A stretch of DNA of 64,000 nucleotides from Tortispora ganteri (Eukaryota): positions 248,001-312,000 of the forward strand of contig PPNB01000005.1 in assembly GCA_003707115.1 (NCBI GenBank), written 5' to 3'. Both the position numbers and the translations under genes were made by a program. Every line of letters begins with the position of its first letter. The stretch's first letter is position 1. The notes under the pieces are model-generated. The model had not been told where the DNA came from. It ran no database searches and saw nothing but the letters and a program-made list of their open reading frames with translations. Shown here piece by piece: positions 16,486-51,468 of this stretch.

Positions 16486-16856
16486 CGCTATAGGTGGAGA
16501 GGGTTCTGGGCAGCGAAAAGTTAATGCGGGGTAAAAAGTTATCGAAACGAAGAAAAATAAAAGGTAGATAGAAAGTATAAAATGGTGTTAACAGCGTCAG
16601 GAAGCAGTAAGAAACTCTATGGATGGAATTGCGGGCGTCAGAAAGTACGACTGCTAATAACTGTCAGTTCCTGTCTATAGGGGAAAGTGTGAGTGCCATG
16701 CAAACTCTAGCTTTCCTTTTAAGGTGTAGCGGAAAGGTCCCGGTAACATCCGGAAGGGTGTTTATTAGTTGCGAAGTTTCCGAGTAGTTCAATAGGGTTA
16801 AGGGTTATAGAACTAAGTAAAACCGACACCGGTTTGCTGTGTGAGGACGAAAAAAA

Positions 16857-40327: not shown

Positions 40328-40687
40328 CTAATCTTCTTTATCAGCGGATTTGGACTTAGTGGCCGAACTGAGGAGGTTCGAAACACCATGATAATTGACG
40401 TACCTTACGCCCTGAACCAGTTGTGAGCATTCATTGACAAAGTGACATGCAAATAAAAGATAATTCTTAGGCGTGACGGCGAGAGAGTATCGCATGAATA
40501 CCAACGAGTAGATAATAAGCGAGCCCGTCATTGGGCCGGAGATTAGTTTGGCGTCTTTCTGTGTATCCATGATCGCGGCCAGAGGAATACCGAAGTTGGA
40601 GACCGGGCCCCAGAAGTGTGTCGAGCACACATATCGCAAAAAGTCCTTGGAGAATAGGAACTTCGTGAATTTATTGCCTGAAGACAT
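40328..40687 (-). CDS. MPC1: Mitochondrial pyruvate carrier 1
   Basis: CSTHFWGPVSNFGIPLAA, ISGPMT, FMRYSLAVTPKNYLLFACH. Confidence 0.97.
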   Translation of the reverse strand: MSSGNKFTKFLFSKDFLRYVCSTHFWGPVSNFGIPLAAIMDTQKDAKLISGPMTGSLIIYSLVFMRYSLAVTPKNYLLFACHFVNECSQLVQGVRYVNYHGVSNLLSSATKSKSADKED

Positions 40688-40877
40688 TGGTTTATTGTGC
40701 GGTAAGAGCAAGCGCGTGGGGTAAAAATTTCTGAGCGGCTGGGCAACGTCCGGTTACTGGTTGTAAAGTACAGTTTTGTTGAAATGGATAAGATATATTA
40801 GGGTTCAGGGGATGACCTAACAAACTCAAATCGGCCATATACTACTCTCTAATTGGTTTGCTATACATGCATGCGAG

Positions 40878-42518
40878 CTATCTATTGAGGAGGAGACTGC
40901 GGAAAAAGTGCACGGTACCGTGGTATTTAAGCGCAAATGCAAGCGATACGAGAATGACAACTGTGTGGTAGACGGTCTTGGGCACTACATAGCGGAACAA
41001 GCGATAGATCGCATGAAGACGCCAGAACTTGTGTTCGCCCTTGAGATCGTAGTCTTGGTAATGCGGCCACAGCAGATGCATCCAATAGTCGCTAGCTAGT
41101 CCTGGGTATGATGCGGTATTACGTCCGAATTCGTTCAGGTACCAGTTTGAGCATCCCGCTGACCATACTGTCCCTTTCAATTTCAACTGCACGTCGAGCG
41201 CGTCTGCATCTTCAGCAGCCTGTTTAACGTCTACGATATTCGCGCGTCCACTGGCAACGGCCTCGACGATTGTCTTGCATGCGTATTCGACTTGCACTTC
41301 GGCTGTATAGATGACTGAATTGTGCGCAGGGAACGAGTTTGGCCCGAAAATGATAGCAAAGTTAGGGAACCCATGTACAGTAGTACCGCCATATGCGTGT
41401 GCGCCGCGTGTCTCTTTCCAATGATCTGCTAGCTCCTTGCCTCCGACGCCGTAAAATCTGATTGGTACCAGAAATTCCTGTACCTTGAATCCAGTAGCCA
41501 TCACGACAACGTCGAAATCTTCCTGGCGGCCACTTGGAGTGACGAGCGTTGACCCGTCAATATGATCCACAGCTTCCCATACTAGGTCTACATTTGGTCT
41601 GTGCAAGGCCTTTAAGTAACCTGGGTCAAATACGCGGCGTTTGCAGCCAAGCGGGAAATCAGGTATCAGTACGTCGTGGTACTTTTTTGGGGCTGTGGCG
41701 CGGATATACGCTTTGGCGTTCTCTTCGGCCTGTTCTCTGATCCGCTCGGAGTAGTCGCTGTCAAGGTACGAATAGTACAAGTTATCAGCGCTGTTGAATA
41801 TCTTGTAGCGCAAATACCGCATGGCAAATGGCACATTGCGGAAGACCCACTTTTGAAACGCAGAATACGGATGGTTTGGACGCTCATGATACCACTGGCC
41901 GGATCTGGCGAAGTGAGTAACGTGTGCTGCTTTTTCTGCGATTCTTGGTACAGTTTGCGAACCAGAACAGCCGTTTCCTACCACTGCTACCCTCTTGCCG
42001 GTGAGATCTGCTCTATCGTCCCATCTTGCAGTGTGGAACAGTGGCCCGGGGAAGGTTTGGTGACCTGGAGTGACAATATCTTTCGGTGTAGCGATTGCAC
42101 CGACGCAGGAAAACAATATTTGCGAGGACCTTGTGAATCGTACACCTGTATTGAGGTCAATGAGATTAACATCCCATTGATTAGTTGTTTCATTCCAGCT
42201 GGCGCTCTCAACCTCGATTTTTGTGTGAATGTACTTTCGAAGGCCAAACTTATCGACCGTGTCATTAATATACTGCAGGATTTCGTCGCGCTCGCACAGC
42301 TCTTTGGACCAGTTTGGATTTAAGTTGAACGAGAAGGAGTACAGGTGCGACATGACATCGCAGCCGCAGCCGGGGTATTTGTTCAGACTCCAGGTGCCGC
42401 CGACATCGGCCTTTTCGAATATGGTGAAGTTCGATACGCCATGTCGATGAAGCAGATTATAACCAGCAGCGATACCGCTTGGTCCAGCACCAATAATAAT
42501 AACTGATGGGCCTGACAT
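40878..42518 (-). CDS. Type I Baeyer-Villiger (flavin-binding) monooxygenase with C-terminal hydrophobic segment
   Basis: GAGPSG and GNGCSG Rossmann motifs; BVMO fingerprints GGTWSLNKYPGCGCD and FPGPLFHTARWD; GCKRR; ATGF. Confidence 0.93.
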   Translation of the reverse strand: MSGPSVIIIGAGPSGIAAGYNLLHRHGVSNFTIFEKADVGGTWSLNKYPGCGCDVMSHLYSFSFNLNPNWSKELCERDEILQYINDTVDKFGLRKYIHTKIEVESASWNETTNQWDVNLIDLNTGVRFTRSSQILFSCVGAIATPKDIVTPGHQTFPGPLFHTARWDDRADLTGKRVAVVGNGCSGSQTVPRIAEKAAHVTHFARSGQWYHERPNHPYSAFQKWVFRNVPFAMRYLRYKIFNSADNLYYSYLDSDYSERIREQAEENAKAYIRATAPKKYHDVLIPDFPLGCKRRVFDPGYLKALHRPNVDLVWEAVDHIDGSTLVTPSGRQEDFDVVVMATGFKVQEFLVPIRFYGVGGKELADHWKETRGAHAYGGTTVHGFPNFAIIFGPNSFPAHNSVIYTAEVQVEYACKTIVEAVASGRANIVDVKQAAEDADALDVQLKLKGTVWSAGCSNWYLNEFGRNTASYPGLASDYWMHLLWPHYQDYDLKGEHKFWRLHAIYRLFRYVVPKTVYHTVVILVSLAFALKYHGTVHFFRSLLLNR

Positions 42519-42553
42519 ATTTAGATTGTGTCTAGTTTTCTTAGTCGGACGCT

Positions 42554-42571
42554 TATATATATATATATATA
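42554..42571. repeat. (TA)n microsatellite / TATA region of the BVMO gene
   Basis: tatatatatatatatata about 35-50 nt upstream of the BVMO ATG. Confidence 0.7.
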
Positions 42572-42578
42572 ATCTCTC

Positions 42579-42743
42579 CGGGTACCATCACCCGAGATCG
42601 ATCGCTCCCATTTCGGCGGAAGACATCCGATATCCACAACACTACTGTAGCAATTCCAGTGTAGTTTTGCCAGACTACAATATTATTAATATAATATACT
42701 GTATATTATTTTTACAATTGTAATTAGCGGCTATTGTGTGCCG
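42579..42743. promoter_or_regulatory. Three CGG-N10-CCG Zn2Cys6-type sites upstream of the BVMO gene
   Basis: 42579-42594 CGGgtaccatcacCCG; 42614-42629 CGGcggaagacatCCG; 42728-42743 CGGctattgtgtgCCG. Confidence 0.7.
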
Positions 42744-43216
42744 TTCGGCGCATGCCGATGTGTGGGGAAGACAGAGCTATTTTGGGAATTACCCCGGATT
42801 TTCTCTAAACATGTATGAATATATGGGATATCAAATAATTGCAGTAAGTAATCAGTTATATGATTTTCAAAATTACATTTCTGTAATATTAAGTGTTAAC
42901 TGTCGAACTGTTATTTGTGAAATCAGTATAATTTACTCTCTAGGGCCAGTACATGTCTTAATATAATCAAAGCGGTCGATGAAAAAGAGCAGTCCTTTAT
43001 CTGATACCGACAATTGAATATAAGACATTCATAATTTTAAAATACAACCCAAATAAATATAATCCAATAACTATGAAATGATTTATATTAAATAATAGGC
43101 GAGCTAACTACGAATACGTTGCAGCACTATAGATCGACACAAAAGTCTAATCTCAAAATAGAGTTTAATACCTCGCTGGATATTTCTTGCAGTATATAAA
43201 TAACAATTACTTTTTT

Positions 43217-44263
43217 TCATATTTTAAAAATGACCTTTTGCACTTTACGCTCATCAAATAATTTGTATCCTTCTTTGGCATCCTCGAGTGGCATGATGTG
43301 GTCAGTAAGGAAAAGGAGATCGTTGGCTTTTTCATTGAGAAGTTTTAGAGCTTCAGGGAAAAGGTGACGTACAGGACATCTACCAAACTGAATAGTAAGA
43401 TTTTTGCAGTAAGTATCCCATGCTGTAAATGGAAATGGATCAGAGTTAACTCCAATTGATGAGATTTTTCCCCAAGGACGAAGTACATCGAATGCGAGTT
43501 TTACAGCATCGGCAACTCCGACGATCTCCATAACATTATCAGCACCTCTGCCATTAGTGACAGATTTGATGGTTTCAATAATGTATTCACGGCCTTTCTT
43601 GAGATCAAGTGGAATCGCACCAAGACGTTGAGCTTGTTTAAGACGGTCGTCAACGGTATCGACAGCATATATGGTGTCGGCCATAGTCTTTGCAGCAACA
43701 ATAGTGCAAAGACCTACAGGCCCACATCCAACAACGACATTGACAGAAGATTTACGCTCCTCATCAGATAAACCTTTGAGAACATTTGAAGCAGCAAAGT
43801 AACCGGTAGGGAAGATATCGGCCATAAGTACCATGGCCTCGGCTGGAGCGTTCGTATTCGGCATAGGGAACAAGGTACCGTCAGCCCATGGTACACGCAC
43901 ATATTCTGCCTGTGCACCATCTAGTGGTTTAGTACCAAAGAGCAGACTGTGTTCGCAACGAGAAGTGGCGCCGTGTTTACAATAAAAGCATTGCATGCAA
44001 CTACAGGTAAACGGAGAGACGATACGGTCACCAGGTTTGAATGATGTCACTTTCGAACCGATTTCTTCGACAGTACCAATAAATTCATGACCCATTATGA
44101 ACCCTGTATCAGATTTCTGATGACCTCTGTAGACGTGAAGTTCAGATCCGCAAAGTGCGGTCAAGTCTACTTTAACAATAGCATCAGTATCATTTTGTAG
44201 AGTTGGTTTAGGTCTATCTACGACTTCGACGTCGTATGGTCCATTGAATACCACAGCTTTCAT
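43217..44263 (-). CDS. Zn-dependent alcohol dehydrogenase (MDR, FDH-like subfamily)
   Basis: CGSELH, GHEFIG, structural Zn CMQCFYC......RC, ADIFPTG, GCGPVG; Asp in AVD suggests NAD preference. Confidence 0.93.
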   Translation of the reverse strand: MKAVVFNGPYDVEVVDRPKPTLQNDTDAIVKVDLTALCGSELHVYRGHQKSDTGFIMGHEFIGTVEEIGSKVTSFKPGDRIVSPFTCSCMQCFYCKHGATSRCEHSLLFGTKPLDGAQAEYVRVPWADGTLFPMPNTNAPAEAMVLMADIFPTGYFAASNVLKGLSDEERKSSVNVVVGCGPVGLCTIVAAKTMADTIYAVDTVDDRLKQAQRLGAIPLDLKKGREYIIETIKSVTNGRGADNVMEIVGVADAVKLAFDVLRPWGKISSIGVNSDPFPFTAWDTYCKNLTIQFGRCPVRHLFPEALKLLNEKANDLLFLTDHIMPLEDAKEGYKLFDERKVQKVIFKI

Positions 44264-44366
44264 TGTTAATAAAATCCAAAAATTGTAATAAATATAAATG
44301 TATTTGTAATATTTATATACAATAGTAAAAGTAAATAAATGGTATTATAAATAATGTGGGGATATT

Positions 44367-44382
44367 CGGATATTAATATCCC
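44367..44382. promoter_or_regulatory. CGG-N10-CCC site containing the perfect palindrome GGATATTAATATCC, upstream of the ADH gene
   Basis: Read directly; one mismatch from the BVMO-promoter motif. Confidence 0.5.
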
Positions 44383-44510
44383 TAATTAGGGGAAATATCT
44401 GGGGAAACTGTGAATTTCCCAAATAAGATTGGCTTGAAGGTATTGTTGTATTTATATGAACTAAAAAAAGAGAAAATATATAAGATTAGATATTTCAATT
44501 ATTAGATATT

Positions 44511-45566
44511 TTAATTATTCGATATAGCATGTTTTGCAAGTTGTTCAATAATTATATTATCGGTTTTCTTTTCAACTGCACGTGATGAGACTACAATGCC
44601 ACCCATAGCATATGTATGCACTTGTGCAGGTTCTTCAATATAAATTATTTCGTGTTCAGGCAACTTGTCGCGGGCCGCTTTTGACGCAAAAATACGCGAA
44701 TCGTTTACAAGAATCTCGGTCGATCCAGCTAATATCAGAACATTACCAATACCGGCAAAATCGTTGTTATTAATCGGACTGATACGTGGATCTTTAGCTG
44801 AAATCTCACCATTTTCAGGTACAAACTGTTCTACCGCTGCAGGTCCAGTTTTTAAATGATCAAGCAGCCAGTCATTGTATACTTGCAGTTTGTCTGGATG
44901 CTCAAACCCAAGATCTAACCATGGCGAGATCAGTATGCTCAAACAAGGTAACGGTCGTTTCTTCTCGTCTTTGATCTTGAACAGTGCCATGCTGCACAAT
45001 CCACCACCTGCAGAATCACCAGCAAAAGCAATGCTCTTAGTACGCGGGCATTTCTCCAGTAGGTAATCGTATGCCGACATAAACGCATTAAGACATCCAG
45101 GGTACCGCTGCTCACTGGCAAGTGGGTACTCGAGACTGAATATAGCCAGATTCAGTCCATGACTATGCGCTACCTTGATCCAGCGCCAGAACGTGCTCTC
45201 GTACATTAATGCATCTCCAACAAAGAATCCACCTCCATGTGCAAACAAAATAGTAACGTCTGCGCTGTAGAATGTGGCATCGTTTGCGGGAAACTGGTAC
45301 CCGCGGAATCCCTTGCCGGCGACATACTTTGTACCACGACCTGCATCCCAGGCAGCTTTGTAGACGGTATCAGGGACACAGTAGAATGCCGATCCGTACA
45401 CTGCTCTACTGATCGCCGTGTACAAAGATGTAGTGTTTCTGCCAATAACACGTCTGTACGGTGTTAGGGCCAGCTCCTTAAAAGTTCTGATCAGAAATCG
45501 TAAAGTCGCGATCGGATTCTTCAGCAGGATCAATATAATCCTCAACCAGTTCAACAAGCGGTTCAT
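44511..45566 (-). CDS. Alpha/beta-hydrolase, HSL family esterase/lactonase
   Basis: HGGGF oxyanion motif, GDSAGG nucleophile, ISPWLD, GSTEILVND, catalytic His in VHTY; hydrophobic N-terminus. Confidence 0.92.
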   Translation of the reverse strand: MNRLLNWLRIILILLKNPIATLRFLIRTFKELALTPYRRVIGRNTTSLYTAISRAVYGSAFYCVPDTVYKAAWDAGRGTKYVAGKGFRGYQFPANDATFYSADVTILFAHGGGFFVGDALMYESTFWRWIKVAHSHGLNLAIFSLEYPLASEQRYPGCLNAFMSAYDYLLEKCPRTKSIAFAGDSAGGGLCSMALFKIKDEKKRPLPCLSILISPWLDLGFEHPDKLQVYNDWLLDHLKTGPAAVEQFVPENGEISAKDPRISPINNNDFAGIGNVLILAGSTEILVNDSRIFASKAARDKLPEHEIIYIEEPAQVHTYAMGGIVVSSRAVEKKTDNIIIEQLAKHAISNN

Positions 45567-45898
45567 TGTTTTTTTTTTATTGATCTTATTATTATAATAT
45601 CTGATCCCTGTAACCGCTATTTATATAATTATTAGAACCTAACCGGCTTAATTGAGTTTTGGCGTTACCATCGCCATCATCGTTTGACATCTCATCAACG
45701 GACAACCCTACGTGCACAATGCAGGTACTGGCGGCAAATTATAGCAATTGAACAACTGCAAAATATTTTTCTAAGATCTTAAGCAACCTTAAGAAAATAT
45801 TTTATATAAATCTACTATTATAAACGATCTCATGAGCATTTTTTATCGAACAATTCGCCCTCGCGCATAGTGTTTTATGGTTATTGCGACCCGAACTA

Positions 45899-45911
45899 CC
45901 CCGCATTTTTT
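45899..45911 (-). promoter_or_regulatory. Mig1/CreA-type GC box with AT flank (AAAAAATGCGGGG)
   Basis: Reverse complement of CCCCGCATTTTTT in the esterase/TF divergent promoter. Confidence 0.55.
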
Positions 45912-46024
45912 GAAACTCTATTTCAAAATAAAGTTTCAAAAATACATACACCTTTAGAGCGGTAAGGGTGAGAAAGAACAAGAAAAAGAAGAACAAAAAG
46001 AAAAAGGTACTAAACAAATTTGCA

Positions 46025-48190
46025 ATGGCCACACAAAGGACCAAACCACGAAGATCAAGTGCAAGCACACGACGCGACATTCAAGAACGAAAACGCATAT
46101 CGTTGGCTTGCGTTTCCTGCCGATCAAAGAAAGTGCGATGTGACGGCAGAACGCCAACTTGTCTTAACTGCGAGAAAGCTCATGAACAATGCACGTACCA
46201 ACCACACAATGACAAACGCAAACCGTACCCGAAGGAGTATATTTCTGCACTATGTGCTCGGATCTCGGCGTTGGAGGCGCTGCTGCAGGAGGCCGGTATT
46301 GCTGCACCGCCGCCTAACCTGTCTATTCCGGACTACACAGCTGATTTGACCTGGATGACGGTTAAAGAGAATTCTAGTAGTTTGTCAGGCGATCTAACGC
46401 AAGTATTGGCTGAACGTATTGGAGAGCTTAATATTGCAGACGATGGTCATCTTCGTTACTTCGGTGCGACTTCAATCTATCACCTTGACGGTGTTGGTAT
46501 AAATCAACAGTCTTTCGAAGATCTTGACATGCTCGGTACTAAAGCGCTTTTAGCTGCTGGTTTAAATGAACCGCTTGACCTTGATCAACGTGACCATCTT
46601 CTCCAGCTCTATTGGACCTGGCACAATTGCTTCTTCTACCATATCAATCAGCACGTATTCATGAAACATATGCATCTCTATCAACAAGGCAATATTAACA
46701 ATGCTTGGGCGTTTTCACCTCTACTACTCTACTCGATTCTTGCTCTTGCTGCGCTATTTGATGATAATTCAGACCCGATTTATTTCCTCAAACGCGCTCG
46801 AGTTTTGTTGGATGTTGAGCTCAATTGTCCCCGCATGGCCACAGTTCAGGCCGCCGCCGTTATTGGTACTACTGAAACAGCGCTAGGAAGCGATCCTCGC
46901 GGTTGGGTTCACTCTGGAATGGCTTTTAGGCTTGTTACAGACTTAGGATATCATATGAACGCCATCAAATGGCTCAAATCTGGTATCCTATCTGAAGAAG
47001 AAGCATTTTGCAGACAGACAACATTCTGGGGCCTTTATATCCAGGACGGCCTCTGGGCGTGCTATTTGGGTCGTCCAGGCTCGTTGAACATGCGTGATAT
47101 CAGTCAGCAAATGCCAGACCCATATGCAATACCAGATACTGTCTGGAAACCATATACAGGAATTAACGACCCATTGCCAGAGGAATGGGAATCGATCGAA
47201 ATGAAAGATCAGCTTGGAATTCTTACTTACTACTCAATCCTACTTGCACAGCATACACATGATGTCGTTGAGATTATTTACCCAGGACGCGAACAACCTT
47301 TATCAGAACTCATCAACTTTGCATCCGCTACCAGGGTCAAATTGGCAGAATGGTATACCGAGCTACCTGCATCATTGCTCTGTTCCACTACTTCTACCCG
47401 TCCCATACTGCCGCACGTCATACTACTACATCTTCAGTACTGGGTCACCACAATATTACTCAACCGACCCTTCCTTAATCAAAAACAGTACGAAACCGTT
47501 CGTGAAGACTCAGAACGGCTCTGCAGGAATGCTGCCGTTAACATATCCAGTCTAATGGCAAAATACTATCGTCTTTATACTTTGAGACGTATAAACATAG
47601 CAGTTGTTCATATGACCTTTACAGCCGCGACAATACATCTCCTGACAGTATGTACAGCCAAACAATCTAATCTGAAAGCTGAGGCCAGGTCCGGTTTACT
47701 CATATGTTGTGCTGCTCTCTCATTGCTTTCGAAGACGTATTCTAATGCACGAATATCGCTCGTCCTACTTACAAGACTCATGACACGCTGGATTGGCGAA
47801 GTTCCTTACTATATGCGTCAGGAGGCTGCCTCGTATTCTAATGGCACCGAAAACGCTACTCCGCCAAAACTACTCGATACTTTCCTCGATCCTGGAAAAG
47901 CAGAGTTTACGTCCGCACAAGCTCTACCTAAAGAGAACATTTACAATCTAGACCAGCGTCTTGATACTGGAATTGATCAGTCAAAGCTTTTATCTGTAAC
48001 TAGTACAGACCAGAAAGATTCTGAACGTCAAGATGCTTCACATGTTGATGAGAACTTACTCTCTGCTTTATTTGATTCGTTTCCGTACCCAGATTCACCA
48101 CAGAACTTTACAGAACATCAGTTAGAAGAAAATGCATGGGCAGATTTCTTTACTGAACATGACTCTATGGTTCTCCAAGAACTATTCTAA
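46025..48190 (+). CDS. Zn(II)2Cys6 transcription factor with fungal-specific TF domain
   Basis: ACVSCRSKKVRCDGRTPTCLNCEKAHEQCTY, DKRK linker, coiled coil, RYFGATS, SGMAFRLVTDLGYH, TFWG...YLGRP; acidic C-terminus; first ATG 46025. Confidence 0.95.
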   Translation: MATQRTKPRRSSASTRRDIQERKRISLACVSCRSKKVRCDGRTPTCLNCEKAHEQCTYQPHNDKRKPYPKEYISALCARISALEALLQEAGIAAPPPNLSIPDYTADLTWMTVKENSSSLSGDLTQVLAERIGELNIADDGHLRYFGATSIYHLDGVGINQQSFEDLDMLGTKALLAAGLNEPLDLDQRDHLLQLYWTWHNCFFYHINQHVFMKHMHLYQQGNINNAWAFSPLLLYSILALAALFDDNSDPIYFLKRARVLLDVELNCPRMATVQAAAVIGTTETALGSDPRGWVHSGMAFRLVTDLGYHMNAIKWLKSGILSEEEAFCRQTTFWGLYIQDGLWACYLGRPGSLNMRDISQQMPDPYAIPDTVWKPYTGINDPLPEEWESIEMKDQLGILTYYSILLAQHTHDVVEIIYPGREQPLSELINFASATRVKLAEWYTELPASLLCSTTSTRPILPHVILLHLQYWVTTILLNRPFLNQKQYETVREDSERLCRNAAVNISSLMAKYYRLYTLRRINIAVVHMTFTAATIHLLTVCTAKQSNLKAEARSGLLICCAALSLLSKTYSNARISLVLLTRLMTRWIGEVPYYMRQEAASYSNGTENATPPKLLDTFLDPGKAEFTSAQALPKENIYNLDQRLDTGIDQSKLLSVTSTDQKDSERQDASHVDENLLSALFDSFPYPDSPQNFTEHQLEENAWADFFTEHDSMVLQELF

Positions 48191-48458
48191 GAAATTTGAA
48201 ATGATCCCTACTACATAGCATTGTTACGAGCTCCACTATCTAAAAAAGGTACAGCCAGTATTAGCAGATACAGAAACTGCCCTTATATTTATAAAACAAA
48301 ACATTGAAGATTGATTGACGAGTATAGTTTAATGAAATATTGTAATTGATAACTTAGAAATGACTAAATTCATATTTAATAATTTTATACCTATTTGTAC
48401 GTTAAACCTATAGGAAACCTCACGGAATCTTAATCATAAAAGTTCAATTGCCTTACCA

Positions 48459-49511
48459 CTAATCCGCGATCTTGATAATTGCCTTATAACCACTAGGAAC
48501 CTTACCAGTTTTGACGGCATCCAGAACACTATTTACAGCGTTCAATCCACCATCATACACCTTGACAGCCTGTTCAATGTATTTTCCAGCAAACACAGTC
48601 TTCTCAAAAGCTTCCCAGTAATCAGAAGTAGGTTTGACCATCTCTGGCTCCTCATTTTTACCAAAATGGTGACAGTGATGACCAGCCAATGAGGTGTAAG
48701 CAAGCACAAACAGAAGTTCAACGTCCTTTCGCGGTTGTGAAGATGGGGGCAACAATAAAGCAAGCTTTCCACCTTTAGAGCCAAAAGCTTCCACTGCGAT
48801 AGGGATACTCTTGTCTTCAGATATAGTGTCGATTCCTAGATCAAGCGAATCATTGGTAATCTTGCGGATTTGTTCTGCCACGTCTGAATCATGATAATCC
48901 AAAACAGCAGTAGCACCAAGTTGCTTTATGCGGTCAAAACTATGTGGAGAGGCAGTTGCAATTACTTTGTAGCCAGCTAAAGCTGCTGCCTGAATTGCAG
49001 CTTGACCGACGCTAGTTGCACCAGACCAGACCAGGAACCATTTGCCCTCTGCATTAGGGTCTTTTTGCCCAAACAAAGGTAAACCAAGACGAATATAAAG
49101 AGCTTGACTGATTGTAGTAATCTTAACTCCCCAAGTAGCAGCTTCTTCAAATGATACTTTTTCTGGAATGTGAGAGAAGGTGCGATCGGTGAGTAATGCG
49201 TATTCAGCATAGGCGCCGTTCTCTGGAGCATCTACATAACATCCATGGACCATTCCAGATACGCGATCGCCTGGTTTTGTAGAAGTAACCTTTGATCCAG
49301 TTTTAACGACAATTCCTGCAGCATCGCATCCACACACAGTACCGGTAGTGATATCATTAAAGAATTCGATATGTTTCCAATCGGTGGGATTGGCGGCGGC
49401 AGCGTGAACTTTGATTAAGATCTCATTTTCAGCAGGTTCAGGAATTGGACCTTCTTTGATTTCAACATCTTTTGATTTGGTAACATAAGCGGCTTTTCTG
49501 GTAGAACTCAT
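48459..49511 (-). CDS. Zn-independent MDR oxidoreductase, enoyl-reductase-like (LovC/ToxD/YNL134C type)
   Basis: NPTDWK, GCDAAG.V, GAYAEY, WSGATSVG, VIATASPHSF..IKQLGA..VLDY. Confidence 0.9.
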   Translation of the reverse strand: MSSTRKAAYVTKSKDVEIKEGPIPEPAENEILIKVHAAAANPTDWKHIEFFNDITTGTVCGCDAAGIVVKTGSKVTSTKPGDRVSGMVHGCYVDAPENGAYAEYALLTDRTFSHIPEKVSFEEAATWGVKITTISQALYIRLGLPLFGQKDPNAEGKWFLVWSGATSVGQAAIQAAALAGYKVIATASPHSFDRIKQLGATAVLDYHDSDVAEQIRKITNDSLDLGIDTISEDKSIPIAVEAFGSKGGKLALLLPPSSQPRKDVELLFVLAYTSLAGHHCHHFGKNEEPEMVKPTSDYWEAFEKTVFAGKYIEQAVKVYDGGLNAVNSVLDAVKTGKVPSGYKAIIKIAD

Positions 49512-50004
49512 TTTTGATTGTAGAAATCAAAAGAAGAATTGAAATATCAACTCTTTATATAATTAAGTAGAGTATAAACTCTAAACAAGATAAGGTTATA
49601 ATGGCATTCAAATACTTACTTAATATATTGTCTATAAACCAACAAATGATTCTAGATATCTAATAAATTTTAATTGCTATTAATGAAAATCATACAATTA
49701 ATATAATTGCAGAGTATTATTCAATGAAAATGACAGTGTATTGTTGTAAATGACATAGCTAGAAGAATCTTGGTGAAGATCTTAGAATTACATAATCATA
49801 ATTATGACGATGAATATAATTCGGAAGCCTAAGTTCTTTACAGTAGATATTGATCAAAAATGAATCTATAAATAAGATCTAAATCAATAAATTACGATAC
49901 AATAATGTGGAAAGAAGAAAGGTACTATAAGACTGTTGTGCCTGTAGTATCATGGACTAATTGAGTATAAGGAGACAAGTCAATAAAACTACTTACTAAG
50001 AAAG

Positions 50005-50461
50005 TCATTGTTTAGTATCAGCAGATGTGTTAATCAATTCAATTTCCTTTCGTGCTTCTTCAATTTCCTTAGACGCGTCTATCAATGTTTCTTTCATTTC
50101 ACTGTGCGCTTGCCGAAGTTCTCCTTTTACCCTTTGGATCGCCTCATCGAAGTCTTTTGTCTCTGCATTGAGTTCATCCTCGAGTTCCTGCGGCAGAGAC
50201 TTCAATTGGATAGTATTTAAGTTAATAGATTGGTCTGTATTCGCGATCTTTTCAATGTCCGTAAAGGCTTTAGAATTAAGGAAATCATTCAGTTTCGCGT
50301 CTAAGTCGTTCAACATATCCTCGAGATGCTGAAGTTAGCGGTTAATAACAGGATAAAAGTAATTTTACTTAATTTGACTTAAATTTACTTACTTCTGCAG
50401 TTAGATTGGCAGAATCTATCATTTTCAATGCCTCTTTGATGTTTAAATTTGTATCGTCCAT
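50005..50461 (-). CDS. Small coiled-coil hypothetical protein; spliced (exons 50461-50393, 50328-50005)
   Basis: MDDTNLNIKEALKMIDSANLTAE|HLEDMLNDLDAKL reads in frame across the intron. Confidence 0.7.
50329..50392 (-). other. Predicted 64-nt intron containing a 3 x 10-bp AAGTAAATTT-like repeat
   Basis: GTAAGT donor, GCTAAC branch, TTCAG acceptor, phase 0. Confidence 0.82.
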
Positions 50462-50598
50462 GATGTATCGAAGGTTAAGTATAGATGTGTATTACTTCTT
50501 TGGTAGGTATAGTGTAATACTCATTATGATAATATTGTGATTCGTATAATTTTATATATTAGATAAGAGAGAGAAAAAAAATAGTCTTACAAGTAACG

Positions 50599-51468
50599 TT
50601 AGACGCTCGTTTTCACATATGCTTCAACATCCTTATACACGTCGAAACGACGTTGTATGGTTACAGGAATACCTTCACGCGCAGATTTAATGACCTCTGG
50701 GTCAAGTTCTGCATATACAATACTCTCTGTCTCATCAGCCTCACTTATAATTTTTCCAAGTGGGTCACATACTAATGAGTGACCGTATGCATGGTATCCT
50801 GCACTCATGTCTCTTGCTGGTGCGCACATTAGCGTATAGACTTCATTGTCGACAGACCGCGCTTGTGCCAGCAGACTCCAATGCATAGGACCAGTGGTTA
50901 AATTAAATGCTCCTGGATAGACTAATGCAAAAGCATTGTGTTTACGTGCAGCAGCCATAGCAAGTTCTGGGAACCGCACATCGTAGCAGATACCAATACC
51001 AATATTACCAAATCCGTCAAGATGTGCAACAGTGCCATGGTCCCCGCCAGCAAGTACTGATGATTCTTTAAATGTCATTTTTCCAGGAATATCAATGTCA
51101 AACAGGTGTACTTTTCGATGCACAGCTAACAACTCGCCTTTAGGACTGAATGTCATATTGGTGTTATACAGAGTACCATCGGCAGCGCGCTCAGGGATGG
51201 ATCCACCTACAAGGAACACTTTGGACTCTCCAGCGATCTTTTTAAGGAATTCACCCGTAACACCACCAGGAACAGTTTCGGCATATTCTGGGAAAGCAGT
51301 GACTGCATAAGGGCTGTTAAAACATTCAGGCAAAACGACTATTTTGGCTCCTTCCGCGGCCGCTTTCAGAATATGCGTCTCGGCTTTCTTGAGGTTCGCA
51401 GCTTTGTCTGCACCTGCTGCAAACTGTATGAGCGCCACTTTAACTTTTTGTAATAATGGCGAAGGCAT
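50599..51468 (-). CDS. NIT3: Nitrilase-superfamily omega-amidase
   Basis: LPECFNSPY, HRKVHLFDIDIPG..TFKES, GICYDVRFPEL, YPGAFNLTTGP.HW. Confidence 0.95.
   Translation of the reverse strand: MPSPLLQKVKVALIQFAAGADKAANLKKAETHILKAAAEGAKIVVLPECFNSPYAVTAFPEYAETVPGGVTGEFLKKIAGESKVFLVGGSIPERAADGTLYNTNMTFSPKGELLAVHRKVHLFDIDIPGKMTFKESSVLAGGDHGTVAHLDGFGNIGIGICYDVRFPELAMAAARKHNAFALVYPGAFNLTTGPMHWSLLAQARSVDNEVYTLMCAPARDMSAGYHAYGHSLVCDPLGKIISEADETESIVYAELDPEVIKSAREGIPVTIQRRFDVYKDVEAYVKTSV

Follow-up and report, generated by a model that had tools for sequence, protein, structure and literature searches.

Three inverted CGG-N10-CCG repeats upstream of a Baeyer-Villiger monooxygenase gene in Tortispora ganteri and their predicted recognition by a neighbouring Zn2Cys6 factor

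The binding of Gal4-class dimers to inverted CGG repeats is a textbook mechanism, in which the spacing between the triplets differs from factor to factor: Put3 and Tea1 recognise CGG-N10-CCG, Ppr1 recognises CGG-N6-CCG and Gal4 uses a spacing of 11. In the ethanol (alc) cluster of A. nidulans, control is exerted by AlcR, a pathway-specific Zn2Cys6 activator, together with CreA. Two published accounts describe zinc-cluster dimers as binding CGG pairs that may be inverted, direct or everted, with spacing and orientation determined by the linker (PMC10954478, PMC6080790). Here we analysed a stretch of 64,000 bp from Tortispora ganteri (assembly GCA_003707115.1, contig PPNB01000005.1, positions 248,001 to 312,000 of the forward strand; hereafter the window, its first base being position 1), in which three CGG-N10-CCG sites precede the gene of a type I Baeyer-Villiger monooxygenase (BVMO). 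These N10 sites were real and non-random, and their spacing was conserved across fungi. They are predicted, with a probability of about 0.6, to form a Gal4-class upstream activating sequence (UAS) read by the product of a neighbouring Zn2Cys6 transcription factor (TF) gene.

The ATG of the BVMO gene, which is transcribed from the minus strand, is at 42518, and promoter positions are counted from it here. Site 1 (CGGGTACCATCACCCG) occupied 42579..42594 (-61 to -76), site 2 (CGGCGGAAGACATCCG) 42614..42629 (-96 to -111) and site 3 (CGGCTATTGTGTGCCG) 42728..42743 (-210 to -225); together they spanned 165 bp, 61 to 225 bp before the start codon. An earlier sequence-only reading had listed exact triplet pairs at 42579, 42614 and 42728 within 165 bp, and all three were present. 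They were situated directly upstream of a (TA)9 run at 42555..42572 (minus strand, -37 to -54), a putative TATA-like element. Several inverted CGG repeats of one fixed spacing, upstream of a TATA element, are also found in the UASG bound by Gal4, the spacing there being 11 as against 10 here, while an inverted CGG repeat with a 10-bp spacer is shared with the UAS of PUT1 and PUT2 bound by Put3. A single pair of the spacing used by Ppr1 at the UAS of URA genes, CGG-N6-CCG, was located at 42746..42757, 2 bp from site 3; it was not significant alone and was one of three non-coding N6 copies in the window, whereas the spacing that was repeated and conserved was N10. Site 3 and the N6 pair made up a 30-bp block of four triplets, and site 2 was overlapped by a CGG-N7-CCG at 42617.

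Chance tests on the window covered 64 kb of one contig, in which coding and non-coding DNA were divided by a crude map of open reading frames (ORFs) of at least 100 aa. Exact CGG-N10-CCG occurred 14 times against 7.4 expected, a count reached by 5 of 100 shuffles, and the total was therefore unremarkable. Eleven of the 14 copies lay inside ORFs, so that the non-coding DNA (11,461 bp) held no copies but the three of the BVMO promoter. In 5000 dinucleotide shuffles of the 698-bp spacer between the BVMO gene and the adjacent alcohol dehydrogenase (ADH) gene, three N10 sites or more never arose, and any of 63 classes of kind and spacing reached three in 7. A window-wide test, in which all 41 non-coding regions were shuffled and inverted and everted pairs were scored at spacings 0-20 (42 classes), yielded at least three pairs of one spacing within 200 bp in 4 of 3000 shuffles. 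The BVMO promoter, with an inverted CGG repeat recurring at one fixed spacing, held the only such cluster in the 64 kb; seven direct-repeat clusters occurred elsewhere in the window, the direct class being counted on both strands.

The stretch was found in two of six listed sequencing runs, and no RNA run was listed as containing it. Against the window, contigs from these two runs of the same organism showed 14 (X1) and 15 (X2) base changes and one deletion over 9.8 kb. Six changes and the deletion fell inside the BVMO-ADH spacer and none in the sites; as the chance of missing 48 of 698 bp seven times is about 0.6, this comparison was uninformative. Over the interval compared (40800-50600) all differences lay within 41058-44540, with none in 44541-50600, and contigs X3 and X5 matched only through short chance pieces.

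The spacing was followed in the promoters of related genes by fetching 80 metagenome loci encoding BVMO relatives, 38 of which were fungal-like (40-54% identity, G+C of 0.41-0.54 and neighbours with HET, Fungal_trans or Zn_clus domains). From these, 32 in which the match reached the BVMO N-terminus were used (L013, L015, L018, L025, L028 and L033 were dropped) and fell into 23 groups at 90% nucleotide identity. Inverted CGG-Nx-CCG pairs in the 800 bp upstream of each group representative numbered 2, 3, 3, 2, 0, 2, 1, 3, 5, 2, 16, 2, 1, 5, 0, 2, 0, 2, 0, 2 and 2 for x from 0 to 20. N10 was thus the sole enriched spacing, its 16 sites contrasting with between 0 and 5 for any other. It was present in 14 of the 23 groups, and where 300 bp or more of upstream sequence was available the figure was 13 of 20; site positions (-125 to -355) are approximate, as the relatives' start codons were estimated from the match. 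In 2000 shuffles the count averaged 2.08 and peaked at 8, and at no spacing was 16 attained. The coding sequences of the relatives held 3 N10 sites in 36.6 kb, and no N10 peak was found in 31 bacterial-like loci. The N10 spacing was accordingly conserved upstream of BVMO relatives in fungal metagenome loci. The 32 half-sites of the relatives read CGG-R-A-T (R in 28, A in 23 and T in 19 of 32) and gave a full consensus of CGGRAT-N4-ATYCCG, the flanks having otherwise diverged. With a matrix made from these sites, site 1 was the top match in the window (11.2 bits).

The surroundings of the relatives' genes formed a recognisable cassette. In L002, L021, L080 and L032 a sugar-type major facilitator superfamily (MFS) transporter gene was divergent from the BVMO gene, which was followed by a short-chain dehydrogenase/reductase (SDR) gene; the transporter was kept in L031 and the SDR in L017. 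An N10-type site was located in the divergent MFS/BVMO promoter of these relatives, and a second one between the BVMO stop and the SDR gene, where it was exact in L002, L017 and L021, carried one mismatch in L080 and was absent from L032. Relatives of the window TF were encoded beside the BVMO in L021 (31.5% identity, 625 aa) and L080 (33.7%, 596 aa), in L031 and, as fragments, in L024, that is, in four of nine groups with at least 3.3 kb downstream. All four TF-linked loci possessed the motif; the two sites of L080 kept the full inner consensus and had the outermost C of one triplet altered. The alignment of the L021 and L080 proteins with the window TF was ungapped from the zinc cluster, across the linker, as far as the coil, and their dimer geometry should therefore match that of the window TF. 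The claim that the repeats are the cognate site of the adjacent TF, a prediction, drew support from the N10 enrichment in relatives, the motif before the SDR gene and the linkage of the TF.

The candidate binder, a protein of 721 aa with Zn_clus and Fungal_trans domains, is encoded at 46025..48190 on the plus strand, 3.5 kb from the sites. Among solved structures in the PDB its first 125 residues matched Ppr1 best (9.5e-08, residues 27-107), followed by Gal4 (1.6e-07, residues 25-87), and both matches extended over the zinc cluster, linker and coiled coil. Put3, in contrast, was matched over residues 26-63 (E 0.006-0.011), which cover the zinc cluster and neither the linker nor the coil. The description of this system as Put3-type thus held for the 10-bp spacing and failed for the domain, which through linker and coil was Ppr1/Gal4-like and shared neither the linker nor the contact histidine of Put3. 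Nor could the domain fix the spacing, since this is 6 for Ppr1 and 11 for Gal4, the two solved domains closest to it. With Gal4 it shared a Zn2Cys6 cluster in which the Lys-Lys was aligned and kept, a similar linker with a common KR.P motif, and a heptad coiled coil; from the last cysteine to the first heptad position it was one residue longer than Gal4 and two residues longer than Ppr1. Residues I73, L76, I80, L83 and L87 followed a 3-4 heptad pattern, the last four being invariant in eight homologs. A zinc cluster, a CGG-reading lysine, a linker and a putative dimerising coiled coil were all present, and a domain of this kind predicts a dimer on an inverted repeat. A dimer structure prediction with two copies of residues 18-100 scored 0.21 against a mark of 0.32, which speaks neither for nor against a dimer. 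According to one published account, the lysine at this position contacts guanines in Gal4, Ppr1, Hap1 and Leu3, whereas Put3 uses a histidine where the window TF has lysine (PMC6265462). The targets differed as well, being a BVMO cluster here and not proline genes as for Put3; no Gal80-like partner of the kind known for Gal4 was seen.

The other promoters of the cluster were less clearly marked. The zinc ADH gene (348 aa) lies at 43217..44263 on the minus strand, and 104 to 119 bp before its ATG was a one-mismatch CGG-N10-CCC copy (CGGATATTAATATCCC, 44367..44382) whose core, GGATATTAATATCC, formed a perfect 14-bp palindrome. A TGG-N10-CCG copy (TGGTTATTGCGACCCG, 45878..45893) was located in the spacer between the TF gene and the gene of an HSL-family (Abhydrolase_3) esterase of 351 aa (44511..45566, minus strand). 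The sequence-only reading had pointed out both copies and had judged such single mismatches weak evidence alone, and it was right on each count. Two further one-mismatch copies, at 42742 and 45601, were absent from its list, and one-mismatch copies numbered 16 in 11.46 kb of non-coding DNA. Since such copies turn up in the background at 1.4 per kb, those of the ADH promoter and the esterase/TF spacer carry no statistical weight. The mismatch of the ADH copy was at the outer C, as in the variant sites of L080, and that of the esterase/TF copy was of the same kind; on this ground the two copies, while unsupported, need not be discarded. The ADH palindrome could be read as three GGATATT units (44358-44382), two direct and one inverted, and the surrounding spacer (22% G+C) had several GGGGAW runs no more than 70 bp away; these units and runs suggest that it may be an element distinct from the N10 site. 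A LovC-like enoyl reductase of the medium-chain dehydrogenase/reductase (MDR) type is encoded beyond the TF (350 aa, 48459..49511, minus strand). As had been reported, its upstream region (49512-50598) contained no exact or one-mismatch N10 copy, nor was the CCCCGSATT box described below found in its promoter, which is consistent with the suggestion that this gene lies outside the regulon.

When the four promoters were compared by pairwise local alignment, 15 to 120 of 200 shuffles scored at least equally well; the alignments, though not significant, pointed to a CCCCGSATT box. A k-mer present in three of the four promoters, TAGCAATT, was rejected, as it occurred 4 times in the window against 2.86 expected, a count attained in 34 of 100 shuffles. 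Motif search placed the box in the BVMO promoter at 42792..42800 (CCCCGGATT, plus strand, its SYGGGG core being read from the opposite strand) and in the divergent esterase/TF spacer at 45899..45907 (CCCCGCATT, plus strand), and a one-mismatch copy at 44353..44361 (minus strand; AATGTGGGG on the plus strand), before the ADH gene. Three of the six non-coding matches in the window were thus held by the cluster promoters, which make up 12% of its non-coding DNA, and the 13-mer context of the 42792 box, TACCCCGGATTTT, recurred upstream of the BVMO relative in L027. Among the relatives there were 10 copies in 142,311 bp, 7 of which stood no more than 400 bp before the BVMO gene, as against 2 copies in 279,620 bp of bacterial-like loci; the relatives with the box upstream of that gene were L002, L021, L024, L027, L036 and L080. 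The CCCCGSATT box is therefore better evidence than the N10 copies for shared control of the three promoters.

The SYGGGG core with an A/T-rich flank is what we take to be the Mig1/CreA consensus, and the sites, which read AAAATCCGGGG, AAAATGCGGGG and ATAATGTGGGG, possessed the SYGGRG core with an A/T-rich 5' flank; the box is accordingly read as a putative carbon-catabolite element, Mig1/CreA-like. SYGGGG alone was marginal, with 5 occurrences in the three promoters against 13 in other non-coding DNA. The only other exact non-coding copy of the box in the window, at 16523, was situated about 30-40 bp upstream of the fumarase gene and suggests a general carbon-source element. In the alc cluster, similarly, the activator is encoded within a catabolic cluster together with a dehydrogenase, and its sites share promoters with neighbouring SYGGRG repressor boxes. 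AlcR differs in binding WGCGG repeats as a monomer without a coiled coil, while a dimer on N10 palindromes is predicted here.

The mechanism that we favour would run as follows. The three CGG-N10-CCG repeats would serve as the UAS of the BVMO gene, just upstream of the TATA-like (TA)9 run, and would most likely be bound by a Gal4-class Zn2Cys6 homodimer, for which the TF at 46025-48190 is the best candidate. Each zinc cluster would read one CGG through the conserved Lys-Lys, and the 10-bp spacing would be imposed by a linker of about Gal4 length together with the short heptad coiled coil after it. The TF would switch the BVMO gene on in the presence of the pathway substrate, presumably some ketone or secondary alcohol, and may act on the ADH gene too, through its degenerate site. 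The CCCCGSATT box common to the BVMO, esterase/TF and, with one mismatch, ADH promoters probably adds glucose repression. Of this scheme, binding and activation are inferred, as are the inducer and the factor that would recognise the box. Several observations weigh against the proposal. The spacing was not predictable from the linker, as the closest solved domains bind N6 and N11, and an N6 pair is itself present in the BVMO promoter 2 bp from site 3. In front of the ADH and esterase genes there were only one-mismatch copies, no more frequent than the background of 1.4 per kb. Exact N10 was missing within 800 bp in 9 of the 23 groups of relatives (three of these having less than 200 bp upstream), and a TF relative was next door in just four of the nine groups with enough flank. 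Finally, the six half-sites of the window lacked the R-A-T extension, and only site 1 carried CGGG on both halves.

The main rival to recognition by the neighbouring TF is that the repeats are genuine Zn2Cys6 sites bound by an unlinked zinc-cluster factor, the neighbouring TF acting elsewhere or via another element. Fungi have many Zn2Cys6 factors each, the TF's own promoter was without an exact site, and both the 4-of-9 linkage and a linker whose closest solved counterparts bind N6 and N11 leave room for such a factor. We nevertheless consider it unlikely, since all four TF-linked relative loci have the motif, the linkers of the window TF and of L021 and L080 are equal in length, and a regulator adjoining its target is usual in clusters of this kind.

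Less likely again is a division of labour in which CCCCGSATT is the cluster-specific element, read by the TF as a single CGGGG half-site, while the N10 repeats serve otherwise. The concentration of the box speaks for this, both in the window (BVMO, esterase/TF and, with one mismatch, ADH as three of six non-coding matches in 12% of the non-coding DNA) and in the relatives (7 of 10 copies in 142 kb within 400 bp upstream of the BVMO genes); the exact copy in the fumarase promoter at 16523 and the resemblance of the SYGGGG core to what we take to be the Mig1/CreA consensus speak against it, and the coiled coil of the TF predicts a target with two half-sites. That the sites are a functionless chance cluster of CpG-bearing triplets in a long spacer seems very improbable indeed. 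It would agree with the unremarkable window total (14 against 7.4, 5 of 100 shuffles), with the unrelated interiors of the three sites and with the very many windows looked at, but against it stand the shuffle tests, with 0 of 5000 locally and 4 of 3000 over the whole window, and an independent enrichment of N10 upstream of BVMO relatives that 0 of 2000 shuffles matched. Recognition of the repeats by the neighbouring TF is thus the reading that we retain.

The genes concerned stand in a compact, intron-poor region, ORFs of at least 100 aa accounting for 52,539 of the 64,000 bp on the crude map. The BVMO (546 aa, 40878..42518, minus strand) was assigned by Pfam and by PDB matches to PAMO, STMO and CHMO (about 3e-49), and the ADH, esterase and enoyl reductase by domain and homology matches. 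The BVMO, ADH and esterase fit a route from secondary alcohol through ketone and ester to acid and alcohol, as judged from the functions of their families. In T. caseinolytica, CANCADRAFT_4319 was 94% identical to the BVMO and CANCADRAFT_4322 91% identical to the window TF; the numbers of these locus tags differ by three and both belong to a single 2.6-Mb contig, an arrangement suggesting that the cluster is kept there too. Upstream of the mitochondrial pyruvate carrier gene (40328-40687, minus strand), the spacer to the BVMO stop (40688-40877) held the sole non-coding CGG-N11-CCG of the window (40736) and a GTGGGG (40716). No Rfam match was obtained within the window, no credible small ORF was found in the BVMO-ADH spacer, a repeat search of 42400-50700 gave just short AT-rich chance pairs, and the Protein Atlas held nothing on the window TF beyond generic names.

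The cluster genes had a G+C content below the window average. Among the best 120 BVMO relatives, the named proteins outside Tortispora included none from budding yeasts; they were 47-55% identical and belonged to Pezizomycotina, Microbotryomycetes and a few mushrooms. The lack of other budding yeasts among the named relatives and the lower G+C suggest patchy inheritance of the cluster or its transfer between fungi. Zinc ADH and esterase genes stand in Tortispora in place of the SDR and transporter genes of the relatives.

In the literature searched, no link was found between Tortispora and Baeyer-Villiger, and by title and abstract there was nothing relevant on a yeast BVMO/ADH/esterase cluster or a Zn2Cys6-regulated BVMO pathway; 'CGG-N10-CCG' was met only in unrelated work on AtrR. 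While the mechanism is a familiar one, this specific regulator, its site and the BVMO cluster were thus not found described. On a tentative and somewhat doubtful view, an orphan Zn2Cys6 family and CGG-N10-CCG may represent an old regulon common to budding yeasts and filamentous fungi, governing a BVMO-centred catabolic cassette (MFS, BVMO, SDR and TF in the filamentous relatives). The Tortispora cassette might then be a rebuilt version that includes a zinc ADH and an esterase; its BVMO gene would have come to carry three copies of the site, specificity for the flanks would have drifted from the CGGRAT-N4-ATYCCG of filamentous fungi, and the whole may have been acquired from other fungi. The TF and the repeats offer a concrete candidate regulator/site pair for a BVMO-centred catabolic cluster. 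As the same spacing stands before related genes in many fungi, the pair could define a cross-species regulon and aid in finding the inducer and the pathway, and the promoter together with the TF might provide an inducible expression switch in yeast.

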